A stretch of DNA of 64,000 nt, from contig JBKPTH010000003.1 in the NCBI GenBank assembly GCA_046765915.1, positions 63,524 to 127,523 of the forward strand, given 5' to 3'. Of this stretch, positions 1 through 60,205 are shown in pieces. Positions within the stretch are counted from its first letter, which is position 1; every line of letters begins with the position of its first letter. The translations under genes and the position numbers were made by a program. The DNA comes from Acidobacteriota bacterium (lineage in GTDB: Bacteria > Acidobacteriota > Thermoanaerobaculia > Multivoradales > UBA5704). Under the pieces are notes generated by a model. It had not been told where the DNA came from, did not search any database, and saw only the letters and a program-made list of their open reading frames with translations.

Positions 1-277
1 CGGGCAGCCCGGCGCCCTCCGGCCACGGCAGGATGCGCACTCTCGCCTCGGCGTGCGCATAGAGCTGGATGCAGCAGGTGTCCTCGTCATGGCCGGCGAG
101 CACCTGGCCGGGGCCGAACAGCCCGAGGAGGACCTCGCCCCCGTCGTCGTGGACCACCGTCAGCGCGACGATCCCCTCCTGCACCTCCAGCATGCTTTCC
201 GCGTCGAGGAGGATCCGCTCGCCGGCCCGGTATTGCTGCTGTGGCCTTCCACTGTATGTCCGATTCTGAGCCTTCAT
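1..277 (-). CDS. Partial (N-terminal) cyclic-nucleotide-binding domain protein, Crp/Fnr-like. The gene runs off the window start.
   Basis: Minus-strand frame reads MKAQNRTYSGRPQQQYRAGERILLDAESMLEVQEGIVALTVVHDDGGEVLLGLFGPGQVLAGHDEDTCCIQLYAHAEARVRILPW... The pattern matches a cNMP-binding beta-roll (G-E x I, FGpGqv.GE). AAGGAGG lies ~12 nt upstream of the ATG. This ORF is not in the ORF track because it is truncated by the window edge. Confidence 0.55.
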   Translation of the reverse strand, partial: MKAQNRTYSGRPQQQYRAGERILLDAESMLEVQEGIVALTVVHDDGGEVLLGLFGPGQVLAGHDEDTCCIQLYAHAEARVRILPWPEGAGLP

Positions 278-912
278 GTCCCTGAACGCCTCCTTCGCCG
301 GACGATGGCGTCCGGCGACTCCAGGTCCGAAGATCGCGCCGCGGCGGCCGGGATGGCCGGCGGCAGGTTCAGGACTCTCGCGAGGGATTCAGGCGAGGGG
401 AGGCGCCCGCGAGCCGGAGCTGCCGAGCGTCTCGCGGCCCGGCAGGGACGCGGCGGAGACGCCGGCGGTCCGGATGCGGACCGGCGGGGCGAGCCGCGGC
501 GCCGAGGGCCGATGGGCGCCGGCCGAGCGCGCCAGGTGCAGGCAGAGCATGCAAGGATCGGCGGCGTGCCCCGGTCCCGCGGCCTCGAGGTGCGAGTCCT
601 CCTGCGGATGGCACGCCTGCGGAAAGACGAGCTTGCCGGCGGACCGCCGAAGCGCGGGCTCCAGCCCGTGATGCCCATGGCCGCCGGCGAGGGTGGCGAG
701 CTGGGCCAGCAGGAGCAGCCCGAGGACGAGCCAGGATCTCGGCCCTTGCCTGGAAGCGTAGGAAGAGGGGACAGGCATGGAACTTTCCGTCGAGCGGTGC
801 GCCATTGATAGCCGACTCTCAGGCCCGAGTCAACCGAAAAAAGAGAACCCCGGGGACCACGCGTCCCCGGGGCATGGGAGGACTCGCCGGAGGACCGGCG
901 ACTGAGAGCGGT

Positions 913-1536
913 CTAATACAGGTCGTTGATGCCGTTGCGGTCGTCGGTCTCGATGGTGGCCGGGCCGTTGTTGCAGGCCGAGACCGACGGATACATGGTG
1001 GCGCCGCTGACGCTGCTGTGGCCGAGGCCCAGCAGGTGGCCGACCTCGTGCACCATGACGCCCTCGATGTAGAACTCCGTGCCGGAGCAGGTCTCGCCGA
1101 GCGAGGCCCAGTTCCAGGCGGTGTTGGTGACGATGTCGGCGTCGGTGATGCGGTAGGTGCCGTTGCCGCGGTTCTGGTAATAGCCGGTGAAGGTGGCCGC
1201 CAGGCAGTTGCCCGTGCAGGCGCCCACGGGATCGCGGAAGTTGAGCATCGGCCGGCCGTCGCCGAGGGTGAAGCCCGAGATCGAGCCCACCGAGGCGTTG
1301 AGGCGGGTGCCGGTGCCGGCGCCGTTCCAGGCGGAGCTGGAGGTGATGGCGTTGCGCGTGCGCGTGCGGCCGAAGTCGCCGTCGGCGATGCTGGACTGGC
1401 CGCGGTTGTCGACGATGACGGTCGGCGGGCTGTCCCAGGTGCGCCGCGGGCTGAGGAGGACGTAGGCCGAGAGGCTGCCCGCGAGCAGGCAGGCGAGGAC
1501 GATGATGACGGTCGCGAACGAAGCGATTCTCTTCAT
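913..1536 (-). CDS. Secreted zinc metalloprotease, metzincin/matrixin-like (HEVGHLLGLGHS).
   Basis: 207 aa with an N-terminal signal peptide (MKRIASFATVIIVLACLLAGSLSA). It carries the HExxHxxGxxH zincin motif plus a downstream Met-turn (ATMYP). RBS GGAGAGGAGACC. Paralog of 7686..8312. Confidence 0.85.
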   Translation of the reverse strand: MKRIASFATVIIVLACLLAGSLSAYVLLSPRRTWDSPPTVIVDNRGQSSIADGDFGRTRTRNAITSSSAWNGAGTGTRLNASVGSISGFTLGDGRPMLNFRDPVGACTGNCLAATFTGYYQNRGNGTYRITDADIVTNTAWNWASLGETCSGTEFYIEGVMVHEVGHLLGLGHSSVSGATMYPSVSACNNGPATIETDDRNGINDLY

Positions 1537-53293: not shown

Positions 53294-53710
53294 TCAGCGG
53301 GAGGTCGTATCCCGCCGCCGGCCGATCTCGATGAGCACCAGCAGGGCGAGGCCGGCGAGGAAGACGGCCGAGCCCAGCAGGCGGTCGGAGCGCGAGAGCG
53401 AGGCGTTGGGCAGCACGGACGAAGCGTTCAGCGCCAGACCGAGCAGGAGAACGGCCATCAGCAGCCACTCGCCGGGCGACCGGGAGGGGAAGGCGAAGCG
53501 CCAGATCCTGCCGCTGCGCCGCGTCCAGAGGGACCAGGCCGTCTCGGGCTCAGCCGCCGGCGGTGGCTCCGCGGGTTGCGGTGCGCGAGCCGGGGGGCCC
53601 AGATCCAGGGTGGCGTCGAGGCGTTGGGATGGAGCGGAGGACGGGCGCCGCGCGCGGCGGCGCCGGGTGACCGAGTCGGGGAGAGACGAGGCGCGATGGG
53701 GTTCGGCCAT
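53294..53710 (-). CDS. Hypothetical membrane protein (2 C-terminal TM helices).
   Basis: Start MAEPHRASS... with GGAG upstream. Pro/Arg-rich N-terminus. LLMAVLLLGLALNASSVL / AVFLAGLALLVLIEIG. Confidence 0.45.
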   Translation of the reverse strand: MAEPHRASSLPDSVTRRRRARRPSSAPSQRLDATLDLGPPARAPQPAEPPPAAEPETAWSLWTRRSGRIWRFAFPSRSPGEWLLMAVLLLGLALNASSVLPNASLSRSDRLLGSAVFLAGLALLVLIEIGRRRDTTSR

Positions 53711-53838
53711 GTTCGGGGCCTCCACTCTCCTAGTGACGGCCCGGCCGAGAACATTTCACGACTCCAGGTAAGCAAGAAAAAAGGAGGACGCCCGGGAGGA
53801 GGCGCCCGGTTGAGGTATGAGCCTGAGGGAGATCCGTC

Positions 53839-54081
53839 CTACTTGTGCCTCTCGGTTTTGATCACGCAGCCGGTGCCATCCATTCCCAGGCTCAAGTTCA
53901 GGCCTAGACCCTTGCCAACGGAGATAACCAAGGATTGTCCAGGCGCGAGGGTCCACTGGACCGGTCTTATCATTCCCTTGGTGTCGCGAGGCGGGGGGCC
54001 CCCGGGCGAGATCTTGACCGTCGTGTCGTCGTCGGCGGCGTCCTTGGTCGCATCATTGGCGGCGCTCTTTTCGGGGTACAT
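53839..54081 (-). CDS. Small hypothetical protein (80 aa) downstream of the anti-sigma gene.
   Basis: Strong RBS GGGAGGAAACTGTC then ATG. MYPEKSAANDATKDAADDDTTVKISPGGPPPRDTKGMIRPVQWTLAPGQSLVISVGKGLGLNLSLGMDGTGCVIKTERHK. Confidence 0.5.
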   Translation of the reverse strand: MYPEKSAANDATKDAADDDTTVKISPGGPPPRDTKGMIRPVQWTLAPGQSLVISVGKGLGLNLSLGMDGTGCVIKTERHK

Positions 54082-54141
54082 GACAGTTTCCTCCCAATGA
54101 AAATCCGCCGGCTAGGCGGGCAAGATGAGCTGATGGGCAGA

Positions 54142-55047
54142 TCACTGATTCTCCCGAAGGACTTCGAACTTCGTGGTGAGCGTTTCGGTTCCAGCCGTGA
54201 CCGCCAGGTCGTAGAGTCCCGTGGTAAGGCGCTGCGCCGGGATCTTCAGGACGAGGGCCGTGCCCCAATCCAGCCGTTTCGGCGTCAGGCCTTTCTTTTC
54301 CCATACGGTCCCCTCGGTCTCGCTCTTCACGGCCGCGTCGAACGATCTATAATCCTCCAATCCTTCTAGATCGACTTGGATCTCGACGAGTTCCGCGTTC
54401 GCCGGAATGGCGGATTTCTGGACGTCTTCGGCTCCGCGCAGGGTAGCCAGGGAGAGCACGAAGACGGTCTTGACGGGCTCGTGCCGAGAAGCCTGCTCCT
54501 CCTGTTGGGGCGTCGTCGGCTCGGGTGGCGGCTGCGGAACTGTCGGCTCAGGTGGCGGCTGCGGAACCGGCTGCTTGGGCGGCGGCTGCAGAACCGGCTG
54601 CTTGGGTGGCGGCTGCGGAGGGGGATTCGGCTGGAGGTTGTCTCGCCTCGGCAGGCCGAGTACCAACAGGAGAACTGCGGCGGCGGCCAGAGCGGCCCAA
54701 CGACTCGTCGTGAGCCGCGGAAACAGGGCGGTACGGCGGCGGAAAGGCACCACGGAAACCGCCGTCCGCTGGGCTTCCCGGGCGGCCGTGTTGAGGGAGC
54801 GCGCAAGGGCAAGGCGTCCCTCCCCTGCGGGAGATGAGGCGAGACGGCGGCGCACCTGCTCCTTCTCCGCTGCGGTAAGCTCGCCCCGATCGTAGGCGGC
54901 CAGGAGGTCAGCCTCCAGCGCCTCGCAGAGGTCGAAGAGCTCGTCGTCCTCGATCAGCCCCTGTTCGAGGCGGTCCATTTCTTCTTCCGGGAGCTCGCCG
55001 AGGAGATAGCTCCTCAGAAGCTCGGTGTTTTGTAGGTCTCCATCCAT
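54142..55047 (-). CDS. Anti-sigma factor (N-terminal anti-sigma domain, TM helix, Pro-rich linker, C-terminal periplasmic domain).
   Basis: MDGDLQNTELLRSYLLGELPEEEMDRLEQ... (anti-sigma N-terminal motif). TM WAALAAAAVLLLVLGL. PPQPPPKQPVLQPPPKQPVPQPPPEP linker. RBS GGAGGAGG. Confidence 0.75.
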   Translation of the reverse strand: MDGDLQNTELLRSYLLGELPEEEMDRLEQGLIEDDELFDLCEALEADLLAAYDRGELTAAEKEQVRRRLASSPAGEGRLALARSLNTAAREAQRTAVSVVPFRRRTALFPRLTTSRWAALAAAAVLLLVLGLPRRDNLQPNPPPQPPPKQPVLQPPPKQPVPQPPPEPTVPQPPPEPTTPQQEEQASRHEPVKTVFVLSLATLRGAEDVQKSAIPANAELVEIQVDLEGLEDYRSFDAAVKSETEGTVWEKKGLTPKRLDWGTALVLKIPAQRLTTGLYDLAVTAGTETLTTKFEVLRENQ

Positions 55048-55126
55048 AAGATCCAGGCCTCCTCCTCTCCAATCTCAATGACGAGTGCTCGCCAACACGA
55101 AAACATTTCGCGGGAGAAGGATCCCG

Positions 55127-55738
55127 TCAGTGTTCGAGATACTTGTGGACACAGCCCTCCAGCTTGCGGCGAACGCGGTGAACCCGGATGCGCAGCGCGT
55201 TGAGCTCGATTCCCATCTCCTGGGCGAGAGTCTGCCGGTTCCGGATGTTGTCCTCCCCTTGGTGGTAGCGGAGCATCAGGTCCCTCTCGTTCTCGGCCAG
55301 TTTGGCGAGGCACCGGCGAAGGCATTCGAGGAGGGGATCGTCGGCCTCGGGCACAGGCGGAGGTGGAGGCCATCCGCCGCTCTCCAAAGCTCGGCGTTGT
55401 CGTGAAGATTGCCGCAGAACCTCCTTGTAGACGAGATGGGCAACGCCACAGAAATACCCATAGGGATCGCTCGACCGGAGCTTGACCCCTTCCGCTATAC
55501 GGCGCGAGACGCGGTTGATGGTCTCGTCCGCCAGGTCTTCGGGAGCCTCGCACCCACGCCACTCGAAGAGCCGGATGAGCCTGCGACGGATCTCCTCGTA
55601 GAGTCTGGCCGCCCGGTCGCGGTCGTCCGGATCGAGCTGCGCGAGGAGCGCCTCGAAACCTTCCTTGGTCAAGCCTCGCGGCTGGCGCGGGGGCTTGCCA
55701 TTCTTCCCATTCTCGCCATTCCCTCTCGTCACCTCCAT
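55127..55738 (-). CDS. ECF sigma factor.
   Basis: Start MEVTRGNG... Region 2 (ARLYEEIRRRLIRLFEWRG..., DPYGYFCGVAHLVYKEV) and region 4 (ENERDLMLRYHQGEDNIRNRQTLAQEMGIELNALRIRVHRVRRKL). Overlaps the 3' end of the TPR-CHAT gene by ~10 nt. Confidence 0.8.
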   Translation of the reverse strand: MEVTRGNGENGKNGKPPRQPRGLTKEGFEALLAQLDPDDRDRAARLYEEIRRRLIRLFEWRGCEAPEDLADETINRVSRRIAEGVKLRSSDPYGYFCGVAHLVYKEVLRQSSRQRRALESGGWPPPPPVPEADDPLLECLRRCLAKLAENERDLMLRYHQGEDNIRNRQTLAQEMGIELNALRIRVHRVRRKLEGCVHKYLEH

Positions 55739-58700
55739 TCTCCCTGCAGTGAGAACCCGGCCCAATAGAAGGGCGATCTCCAACTCGGCTTGCGCGCCAC
55801 TTCGAGCTGTGCCTGACGCAGGGCGGCAGCGGGCGAGAGTCCGTCGCGGAGCATGCCGCGATAGAAGGTCGTCATCAGCTCGGCGGTGGCCCGGTCCTCG
55901 ACGCTCCACAGGCTGGCGAGCACGCGCGCGGCGCCGGCGTACATGAAGCCGCGCGTCAGTCCCACCAGCCCCTCGCCGCGGATCTCTTTGCCGAGGGCTG
56001 TCTGGCAGGCCGAGAGCACGACCAGGTCGGCCCGAAGGCGGAGGCTGTAGATGTCGCTGAGCCGCAAGTATCCATCCTGGTGTTGGCCGTTCTCATCGTA
56101 GAGGGACATCACCAGACGCGAGAGCTCCGGACGCTCGGTTTCGATGACACCGTGGGTGGCGAAGTGAACGGTGCGGAAGAGATTCAATCTGCCGTCCGTC
56201 ACGGCGGACCGCGAGGCGGCACAGCCTACCGCCTTGAAAACCTCTTCCGGAGGAAGGAGCGCCGCGATCGCGTCCGCCTCTTTCCCCGAAGCACGCAGAC
56301 GGCGAAGATCGGGTTCCACGGTCGATTCCGGAGCCTGGCCTCCCCGCGTTTGTTCCACGGATGTGGATGGCAGCGCGGACGGCCCTTCCGTGCTTGGGCT
56401 GTGCGAAATCCGCTTGTCGTCCGGCTCGAAGACCGGATCCGCGAAGATGGCCAGCCTCCGGGGTGCCGGCTGCCGGTCGCGAAGCTCGCGCCGCAGCACG
56501 GCCAACACGGAGGCGGAAGGCAGATTCACGATCTCGTGGCCGCTGACGAGAGGTTCTCCAGTCGAGGGGAGAGGCAACGCCGCGAACGGCACGTACTGCA
56601 GCGCGCCGTCAGCCACGATCAGCAGCGGACGATCGCCGAGGAGCGGCTCGGCCGGTTGGAGGATCAGCCGGGATAGGTCGCGGGCCACTTCCTCGACTTT
56701 GAGGTCGGCGGCGCGCCGCTCCTGCGCCGGAGGGCGCCCGCTGCGTACGGTGAGGAGCTGGTAATAGTCGCGGGCCGCCGCTTCGATCCGCGCACGCCCC
56801 GGCAGCTCGAAGCTGGCAAAGGAGTCGGCGGTGACAGCCCAGAGGAAGCTCTTCTCGACACCGAGGGAGTACTCGAGCAGCAGAGCCCCGCCATCCAGCA
56901 CCTGGCGCTGGATCTCCTCCAGGCTGAGGGGCTGCGCCTGGGTGAGCGCGGCATAGCGAGGGCTGCTCTGGCGCAGCTCCACCTGGGCTCGCCGATACGC
57001 ATCGAGGGCCTCTTGGAGCCTCCGCCGGGCTTCCGCCAGCTTCTCGGAGTCCGAGTTTTCCTGCTTCAGCAGCTCACGCAGATGGTAGTCGCGGGCGCTG
57101 AGGTCCTGCCGGGTTTGCCGCTCTCTTTCGAGGACGGCGGGCTCCGCTCCCAGATCGATCTGGGCTTGCGCTTCGTTCAGGATCTCGAGCAGGCTGCGCG
57201 CGCGGGCCCGCTCGCTCGCTCGCAGGGCCTCCGCCGCAAACCCCTCCATCGGCCTTTGTACATGGAGAGCCATCAGGGTGTTCATCTGGAGCTCGTAGAT
57301 CTCCTGCGTGGAGGCCAGGAAAGAGGTCTTCGTATCCGGGTCGACCAGTCGACCACGCCACAACTCGATCAAGTCGAGGATGGGACGGAGCCGCGAGAGG
57401 GTGCCATCCAGGTCGCCGCCTTCCCGGGCCAACCGCGCCAGGTCAAGGTTGATCTCGGCCTCGCGGCCGCGATCTCCCCGCCGGCCGGCGAAGGATAGCG
57501 CCTGCAAGAGCTCGGCTTCGGCGGCGGCTTTGTCGCCCAGATCCCGCAGGACGCTTCCCAGCGCGTAATGCGACATGGCCTGCTCTTCCCGCGTTCCGTC
57601 CAGGCTGACCGCTTCGCGAGCCCAAGCCGCCGCCTGCGTCGGCTGCTCCCCCCGCAGGAGGAGCGCGAGCCTCGCGAGCGCGAAGACTTGGATTTTCCGA
57701 TTCCCGATCTGGCGTCCCAAGGCCAAAGCCCGGCTGAGAGAGTCCCGCGCTTCTGCGAGCTCCCGGCGATGGCTGTAGACGTCCGCCAGATTGATCAGGA
57801 TCGTAGCGGTCATCCCGCGATCACCGGTCGAGACGGTCATGTCCAGGGCGGCCTTGTAACGATCGAAAGCCTTCTCCCATTCACCGAGAACGCGGTGGGT
57901 GCCGCCCAGGTTGGTCAGGATTCTGATCTCTGCCGAGCGGTTGGAGGATTGGCGGGCCAGGGTCAGAGCTTGTGTGTAGAGCCCGAGGGCAGTCTGCATC
58001 TCACCGAGATGGTCATAACCGATCGCCAGATTGTTCAGCACGTTGAACTCTGTCGTAAGATTTCCGGACTGCTGCGCCTTCTCGAGAGCCTGGCGCTGCA
58101 GGTCCACCCCTTGCCGACTCTCGCCCGCTTCGTCGGCGAGCCGGCCGAGGAGGTACAGGTTATCCGCCTGCAGCCCGGCTTCTCCCAACTCGCGGGCCAG
58201 GTCGAGCGCCTGATCGTGCGCTGCTCGGGCCTCCTCGGGACGATTGAGATTCCACAAACAGCGTCCGACCCAGGTGAGCGCTTCGGCCTGGAAAACCCTG
58301 CTCCGGCGGCTGGTCTGACCGCCCCAGTCCACCGCGGCCTGACGGAAGTCCGCTAATGCCTGGTCGGTTGCCGATTTGTAGCGGAGACGGCCAAGGCGGT
58401 AGAGGATCTCCGCGCCCTTTTCCCGGTCGCCCACTTGACGCCAGAGGGTAAGAGCGTGCTCGAAAGATCCGATCCGATCATCCGAGGAGAGGGCGTCCCA
58501 GGTAGCCCGGACCGCTGTGGCCCTCACCTGGTCCGCCTCGGTCGGTTTTCTTGGACCCTCGACTCTCAGGAAGTAACGGCCGGAGCCCTCGCCCGAAGCG
58601 TTCACCTCGAGCCGGTAGGACCCTGGGTTCGCTGCCACGACAGCGAGCTCCTGAGCGTCATCCGCATAGTCGTCGGGTCCTGGGGAATCCGCCCCGGTCA

Positions 58701-58980
58701 CCAAAGTCCCCGCAGGATCGACAAGTCGAAGCGCGAGCTTGACGCCGTTCTCTTCGGCCACGACCCGCAGGAACTGCCCCGTCCGGAGCTCGAAAGGGTA
58801 GACGTGCATCTCGCCGCCGTGGATCTCGCGTTCGATCGGTCGCTGCTGCGCGGTGGAGGCGGCGGTGGGAGAGGGACCTTCCGCGCAGCAGAGCACGGCC
58901 GCGAGGAGTCCGAAGAGGAGCCAGAGCGCGCCGCGGCTGAAGAGCGATGCAGATCGGCGAAAAACGGGTGAAGGCGTCAT
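55729..58980 (-). CDS. TPR-repeat + CHAT (caspase-like) domain protein with signal peptide; first gene of the CHAT / ECF sigma / anti-sigma operon (alternative start 59034).
   Basis: MTPSPVFRRSASLFSRGALWLLFGLLAAVLCCAEG signal peptide. Many TPR repeats (LNNLA/LTNLG...). C-terminal CHAT: HFATHGVIE..., LVVLSACQTALG. Confidence 0.75.
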   Translation of the reverse strand: MTPSPVFRRSASLFSRGALWLLFGLLAAVLCCAEGPSPTAASTAQQRPIEREIHGGEMHVYPFELRTGQFLRVVAEENGVKLALRLVDPAGTLVTGADSPGPDDYADDAQELAVVAANPGSYRLEVNASGEGSGRYFLRVEGPRKPTEADQVRATAVRATWDALSSDDRIGSFEHALTLWRQVGDREKGAEILYRLGRLRYKSATDQALADFRQAAVDWGGQTSRRSRVFQAEALTWVGRCLWNLNRPEEARAAHDQALDLARELGEAGLQADNLYLLGRLADEAGESRQGVDLQRQALEKAQQSGNLTTEFNVLNNLAIGYDHLGEMQTALGLYTQALTLARQSSNRSAEIRILTNLGGTHRVLGEWEKAFDRYKAALDMTVSTGDRGMTATILINLADVYSHRRELAEARDSLSRALALGRQIGNRKIQVFALARLALLLRGEQPTQAAAWAREAVSLDGTREEQAMSHYALGSVLRDLGDKAAAEAELLQALSFAGRRGDRGREAEINLDLARLAREGGDLDGTLSRLRPILDLIELWRGRLVDPDTKTSFLASTQEIYELQMNTLMALHVQRPMEGFAAEALRASERARARSLLEILNEAQAQIDLGAEPAVLERERQTRQDLSARDYHLRELLKQENSDSEKLAEARRRLQEALDAYRRAQVELRQSSPRYAALTQAQPLSLEEIQRQVLDGGALLLEYSLGVEKSFLWAVTADSFASFELPGRARIEAAARDYYQLLTVRSGRPPAQERRAADLKVEEVARDLSRLILQPAEPLLGDRPLLIVADGALQYVPFAALPLPSTGEPLVSGHEIVNLPSASVLAVLRRELRDRQPAPRRLAIFADPVFEPDDKRISHSPSTEGPSALPSTSVEQTRGGQAPESTVEPDLRRLRASGKEADAIAALLPPEEVFKAVGCAASRSAVTDGRLNLFRTVHFATHGVIETERPELSRLVMSLYDENGQHQDGYLRLSDIYSLRLRADLVVLSACQTALGKEIRGEGLVGLTRGFMYAGAARVLASLWSVEDRATAELMTTFYRGMLRDGLSPAAALRQAQLEVARKPSWRSPFYWAGFSLQGEWR

Positions 58981-59119
58981 CCTGTCTTCGATACCTGCAA
59001 CTTCCCCCGAGCGCATCAGAATTAGCGAAGGCACAACCTATTTTATCGCCTCCCGATCATGTCGCGGGACAGAACGGAAAAAGGGCGGAAATGCGGCGAA
59101 TTCGCGCTAAGCTAGCCCT

Positions 59120-60205
59120 GTGGAACCGGAGCCGGAGGAGGCGCGGAGCCGCCGCGTCCTGCACTGCGACATGGACTGCTTCTATGCCGCCGTGCATCAG
59201 CGGGACGATCCCTCTCTGCGCGGCAAGCCGGTGGTGATCGGCGGCCGGCCGGAGAGCCGCGGCGTGGTGGCCGCCGCGAGCTACGAGGTCCGCCGCTTCG
59301 GCGTCCACTCGGCGATGCCTTCCTCGCAAGCCAGGCGGCTCTGCCCGGAGGCGATCTTCATCCCTCCCGACTTCCGCCGCTACTCCCGGGAGTCGGAGAA
59401 GATCTTCGCCATCTACCGGGAGATCACCCCGCTGGTGCAGGCGGTGTCGATCGACGAGGCCTATCTCGACGTCACCGACCATCTCGGCGAAGCCGGCAGC
59501 GCCACCGCAGTGGCCAAGGAGATCCGGCGGCGGGTGCGCGAGGAGCGTGGGCTCACGGTGAGCGTCGGCGTGGGACCCAACCGTCTCGTCGCCAAGATCG
59601 CCTCCGACTTCCACAAGCCCGACGGCTTGACCGTGGTGCGGCCGGAGAAGGTGCAGGCCTTTCTCGATCCGCTGCCGGTGCGCCGGCTCCACGGCGTGGG
59701 CCCGGCGACGGAGAAGGCGCTGGCCGAGCTGGAGGTGCGCACGGTCGCCGAGCTGCGCGCCGTGCCGCTGGAAACCCTCTCCGTCCGTTTCGGCAAGCAC
59801 GGCCGTCTCCTCTTCGAGTTCTCCCGCGGCATCGACGACCGGCCGGTCGAGGTCCATAGCGAGCGCAAGAGCCTGGGGGTGGAGAACACCTATGCCGAGG
59901 ACCTCACCGATCTCGCCCGCATGGAGGCGGAGGTCGAGCGCATGGCGACGTCGGTGGCCGAGGCCTTGGCGCGCTCCGGCTTCGCGAGCTGCACCGTCAC
60001 CCTCAAGCTGCGCTATTCCGACTTCACCACCCTCACCCGTTCCCGCACCTTCCCCGTGCCGGTCTACGACGGCGCGGTGATCGCCGAAGTGGCGAAAGAC
60101 CTGCTGCGCCGCACCGAGGCCTCCTCGCGGCCGGTGCGCCTGCTCGGAGTCACCGCCTCGAACCTGGTGCGCGAGAGGATCGCGCAGTTGACGTTGTTCG
60201 CGTGA
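59120..60205 (+). CDS. dinB: DNA polymerase IV (Y-family translesion polymerase).
   Basis: [17 protein letters not shown]...[10 protein letters not shown]...[24 protein letters not shown] start at 59120. A TGTC-gcgg-GACA palindrome sits at 59060..59071 upstream. Confidence 0.9.

Follow-up and report, generated by a model that had tools for sequence, protein, structure and literature searches.

Organization of the operon

The window analysed here is a stretch of 64,000 nt from a soil acidobacterium, on whose minus strand four genes encode, in order, a TPR-CHAT protease, an ECF-type sigma factor, a single-pass anti-sigma-like protein and a small protein (Table 1). All four ORFs were found where a preliminary description of this DNA had placed them, with the protease gene first, and the 1083-, 203- and 301-aa products match exactly the genes already called in the public annotation. 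Two figures of that description had to be revised: the protease is 1083 aa long instead of 1084, the stop codon having been counted, and the unit, whose ORF positions stand, spans about 53786..59071 and is wider than the 54142-58980 given. The other structural details were recovered, namely the (PPQPPPKQP)n linker of the anti-sigma, the strong ribosome-binding site of the 80-aa ORF and the overlap of about 10 nt between the protease and sigma genes. The sigma ATG at 55738 and the protease stop codon at 55731..55729 overlap by exactly 10 nt; initiation at the alternative in-frame GTG at 55732 would give a 4-nt overlap (GTGA).

Table 1. Features of the operon in the window (positions are those of the window; residue ranges refer to the encoded protein)
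Feature	Position	Strand	Remarks
Conserved upstream box TGTCCCGC	59064..59071	-	TTGTCA/TTGTCC in relatives; in most orthologous upstream regions
Promoter-like -10 block CGATAAAAT	59040..59048	-	TAAAAT = 59045..59040; conserved motif
Probable operon 5' UTR	58981..59033	-	conserved in relatives
TPR-CHAT protease gene	55729..58980	-	1083 aa; Pfam domains and N-terminal signal
Protease parts	signal about 1-35; weak PPC-like beta domain 59-127; TPR about 170-500; CHAT 764-1080		
Catalytic dyad codons	His943 = 56152..56154; Cys992 = 56005..56007	-	
CHAT stop/sigma start overlap (ATGGAGGTGA)	55729..55738	-	read directly from sequence
ECF-type sigma gene	55127..55738	-	203 aa; alternative GTG start 55732; fold-level evidence
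Single-pass anti-sigma-like gene	54142..55047	-	301 aa
Anti-sigma parts	cytoplasmic helical bundle 3-95; TM about 116-133; Pro-rich linker about 135-190; periplasmic Ig-like beta-sandwich 193-298		
27-nt tandem repeat (9 aa, PPQPPPKQP-type)	54517..54619	-	3.8 copies; encodes Pro-rich periplasmic linker
Arg204-Gly205 codons (LRGAE loop)	54436..54441	-	candidate protease site in anti-sigma periplasmic domain
80-aa small ORF, fourth gene	53839..54081	-	GGGAGG RBS; homologues
Intrinsic-terminator-like hairpin and T-run	53786..53807	-	probable operon end
Possible fifth gene	53294..53725	-	143 aa; two C-terminal hydrophobic segments; operon membership uncertain

The start of the protease gene is assigned to the ATG at 58980, because in relatives stop codons interrupt the frame ahead of the conserved ...GAAGACAGGATG. 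Ahead of it lies the promoter-like element. A scan of the window and 1.3 Mb of loci returned 29 matches to its motif, CGRTAAAAT(R), each of them upstream of the operon, either before CHAT or, in the CHAT-less locus L022, directly ahead of the sigma gene. The preliminary description had pointed to ECF promoter motifs upstream of CHAT (58980..59120); the -10 block is present there, but the GGAAY ECF-type -35 element, found in relatives about 15 nt upstream of the block, has been deleted from the window. In the window and in two related loci (L005 and L009) the loss of about 32 nt, GGAAY box included, has left the upstream box only 21 nt 5' of TAAAAT. We infer that the operon may be autoregulated by its own sigma factor. 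The 5' UTR has neither covarying structure, though its sequence is conserved in relatives, nor an Rfam match.

At the other end, the 80-aa ORF begins 61 nt past the anti-sigma stop, with the Shine-Dalgarno sequence GGGAGG 8 nt upstream, and has ten homologues of 59-84% identity. The same slot in 41 related loci is occupied by a family of 92-113-aa proteins with no Pfam match, with which the 80-aa product aligns at an hhalign probability of 23% (P 9e-4). The hairpin that follows the small ORF has an 8-bp stem (6 GC) and a 6-nt loop followed by TCCTTTTTTC, and it is the only good terminator-like hairpin. It is probably the end of the operon; the total of terminator-like sites in the region does not exceed shuffle expectation, so this call rests on position. 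Past the hairpin sits the possible fifth gene (GC3 0.88), which shows protein-level conservation at the same position in 16-21 related loci and whose counterpart in L003 is called as a 133-aa gene.

Predicted products of the operon

The protease has a CHAT domain (Pfam, E 2.7e-67) and a TPR region matched by several Pfam TPR families (TPR_12, E 5.9e-29), whereas PPC is under threshold (E 0.014). His943 and Cys992 are invariant in 100% of 57 CHAT orthologs, as are the surrounding motifs, which argues that proteolysis is under selection. A basic-plus-hydrophobic N-terminus, judged by eye and hydropathy, is present in 57/57 orthologs, and some carry a canonical lipobox-like LSGC/LGSC/AGC. Given this putative export signal, the best reading is that the protease works in the periplasm, and its target is then likely to be the part of the anti-sigma that faces the periplasm. 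Export of the protease had been overlooked in the preliminary description.

The second gene had been called an ECF sigma factor, an assignment that holds for the fold but misses every curated sequence threshold. All sequence matches are sub-threshold, including Sigma70_r4_2 (E 4e-4), TIGR02989 (E 3e-10, confined to region 4), TIGR02937 (24.5 bits, with the cut-off at 42.9) and the NCBIfam type III-E CRISPR-associated sigma NF041236 (27 bits, E 3.6e-6, cut-off 100), the last being weaker than the match to another ECF family. The family profile, in contrast, reaches Mycobacterium tuberculosis SigE (E 0.003), and the AlphaFold model (pLDDT 79) retrieves ECF sigmas as all of the top 15 Foldseek hits and most of the top 21. 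Judged from this model, the protein, which has >1900 homologues, is a divergent ECF-like factor recognised only at the fold level. Neither it nor the N-domain of the anti-sigma matches any curated family above threshold.

The third gene product is predicted to bind the sigma factor through its N-terminal domain; it lacks the HxxxCxxC zinc motif. Its linker, in which Tandem Repeats Finder scores the repeat at 143 (86% matches), varies in length and composition among homologues. In the C-terminal domain, Arg204 and Gly205 are invariant in 30 homologues and are among the most conserved residues; of 71 such domains compared, 90% retain the Arg. In the structure model, where confidence in the domain is otherwise high, residues 203-205 fall within a flexible loop of low confidence that connects strands 1 and 2.

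Conservation of the locus

As an orthologous locus of the chromosome, the module lies in the dinB-fumC interval of Thermoanaerobaculia and Holophagales, is essentially single-copy and syntenic, and holds this position in 55-60 of 80 species; relatives of it occur in other Acidobacteriota, across several acidobacterial classes. Vertical inheritance of a signalling operon is the best explanation. The order CHAT-sigma-anti-sigma is found in 69 of 81 loci, and in 59 of these 69 there is a 4- or 10-nt overlap between the CHAT stop and the sigma start, an arrangement kept across dozens of species that is therefore more than chance. Comparison among genomes, recommended in the preliminary description as a check, upheld the protease as first gene, and order, overlap, the single promoter-like element and the terminator-like hairpin together support the co-transcription that it had proposed. 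Such strict translational coupling suggests that CHAT and sigma may be stoichiometric partners.

CHAT, the anti-sigma N-domain and the Ig-like C-terminal domain occur together in 69 of 81 loci. CHAT is present in 69 of the 70 loci with the Ig-like domain, which is absent from six of the seven loci without CHAT (Fisher p = 9e-6, with kinship among loci ignored and the association resting on few independent losses, one each in a Blastocatellia clade, a Kofleriaceae MAG and a truncated contig). The anti-sigma of loci without CHAT is short and soluble, with neither membrane nor periplasmic part; that of L080 has 115 aa and consists of the N-domain only. In L022, where CHAT is lost, the N- and C-domains are encoded in separate frames.

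Proposed mechanism and alternatives

Two characterised systems pair a TPR-CHAT protein with a sigma factor. DdvA of Myxococcus xanthus carries a fused periplasmic TPR-CHAT part, and it has been proposed, though not demonstrated, that this part makes the site-1 cut in DdvA itself by autoproteolysis (PMC11506125). The present operon looks like a two-gene version of this recently described anti-sigma/protease fusion. Like DdvA-DdvS, it brings together an ECF-type sigma, an anti-sigma with one TM pass and a TPR-CHAT part in the periplasm whose His-Cys dyad is conserved, a flexible linker joins the TM helix to the periplasmic part, and a CHAT site-1 cut ahead of RseP-type intramembrane cleavage is proposed. 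It differs in that protease and anti-sigma are separate genes, the anti-sigma has a small Ig-like domain of its own and a cytoplasmic domain without a CHCC/HxxxCxxC zinc site, the protease gene comes first and is translationally coupled to sigma, and the locus is core chromosomal in Acidobacteriota, whereas that of DdvA lies in a CBASS/CRISPR island in Myxococcota. No similarity to the DdvA PDB entry was detectable, profile comparison included. In Craspase (Cas7-11, Csx29, Csx30, Csx31 and CASP-sigma), the TPR-CHAT protein Csx29 cleaves Csx30 and thereby relieves inhibition of an ECF-type sigma (PMC10028731). Craspase and the present operon both link a TPR-CHAT protein to such a sigma and its inhibitory binder, with inhibition proposed to be relieved by proteolysis. 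Craspase, however, is cytoplasmic, RNA-guided and Cas7-11-bound with a soluble substrate, whereas the present locus lacks cas genes and codes for a protease with an export signal and for an inhibitor that sits in the membrane.

The layout also resembles classical regulated intramembrane proteolysis, in which an anti-sigma that binds sigma through a cytoplasmic domain at its N-terminus, crosses the membrane once and has a C-terminal periplasmic domain is expected to be cut outside (site-1), then within the membrane (site-2) and finally degraded in the cytoplasm. Familiar examples are DegS/RseP-RseA-sigmaE and PrsW/RasP-RsiW-sigmaW. Their site-1 enzymes are PDZ serine or PrsW-type metalloproteases encoded elsewhere; here the operon itself supplies the candidate, a caspase-like cysteine protease of clan CD. 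Among Actinobacteria, ECF54 is described in a summary citing Casas-Pastor 2021 and Huang 2015 (PMC8999054) as having a conserved neighbourhood that includes genes for proteins with CHAT, subtilase and carboxypeptidase domains, a recurring ECF sigma/CHAT association for which control by proteolysis is likewise proposed. According to that summary, ECF54, from another phylum, differs in having no recognisable anti-sigma, the protease being proposed to act in its absence.

We propose, with roughly even confidence, that the periplasmic CHAT protease cuts the anti-sigma in its periplasmic part and frees the ECF-type sigma, as a split version of DdvA-DdvS. Protease and sigma would be made in fixed ratio through the stop/start overlap, and the cytoplasmic helical domain of the anti-sigma would hold sigma. 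A periplasmic signal would activate the dyad, the sensor being either the Ig-like domain or, within the protease, its TPR or PPC-like part; CHAT, probably acting as the site-1 protease, would then cut after the invariant Arg204 of the candidate LRGAE loop or inside the linker, and sigma would be released by a site-2 protease of the RseP type together with cytoplasmic proteases. We infer the cleavage and its site, as well as the signal and the regulon. The operon is a clean test case for whether TPR-CHAT proteases switch sigma factors on.

The protease-first order fits CHAT as an output of sigma equally well. As a regulon member or effector, CHAT would act on other envelope or secreted substrates, produced in greater amount in the periplasm when sigma boosts its own operon, while the Ig-like domain senses and generic proteases cut the anti-sigma. 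We consider this possible, if rather unlikely. CHAT does stand first behind the only conserved promoter-like element, target genes are common in ECF operons, anti-sigma cleavage by CHAT is itself hypothetical, and the CHAT genes near ECF54 are described in summary accounts as possible regulators or targets (PMC8999054, PMC7826278). The loss of the anti-sigma TM and periplasmic parts in loci without CHAT is nevertheless hard to explain if the two were independent, the strict CHAT-sigma coupling suggests stoichiometric partners, and both the fused and the CRISPR-linked precedents regulate sigma factors.

The co-occurrence of CHAT with the periplasmic domain fits binding as well as cleavage, and TPR arrays are protein-binding modules. 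CHAT could accordingly be a periplasmic co-sensor or guard whose TPRs bind the Ig-like domain and control the access of another site-1 protease, with its own catalysis aimed at a different substrate or at itself. Protective partners of anti-sigma factors are well known, and RseB on RseA and the TonB-dependent transducers on their anti-sigma factors exert control of this type. We hold such a role to be improbable, as the dyad and its surrounding motifs are invariant in 57 orthologs and the conserved Arg-Gly loop looks like a site, though it might equally be a binding epitope.

An antiphage switch of the DdvA-DdvS or Craspase kind, turning on defence genes when a phage component is sensed, would suit the defence linkage of both characterised TPR-CHAT/sigma pairings and the weak III-E sigma match (27 bits, E 3.6e-6), but is very improbable, given that this match is far under the 100-bit cut-off, the flanks carry no defence genes, PADLOC returns only a generic TPR match, and the essentially single-copy synteny at dinB-fumC in 55-60 of 80 species argues against a mobile island.

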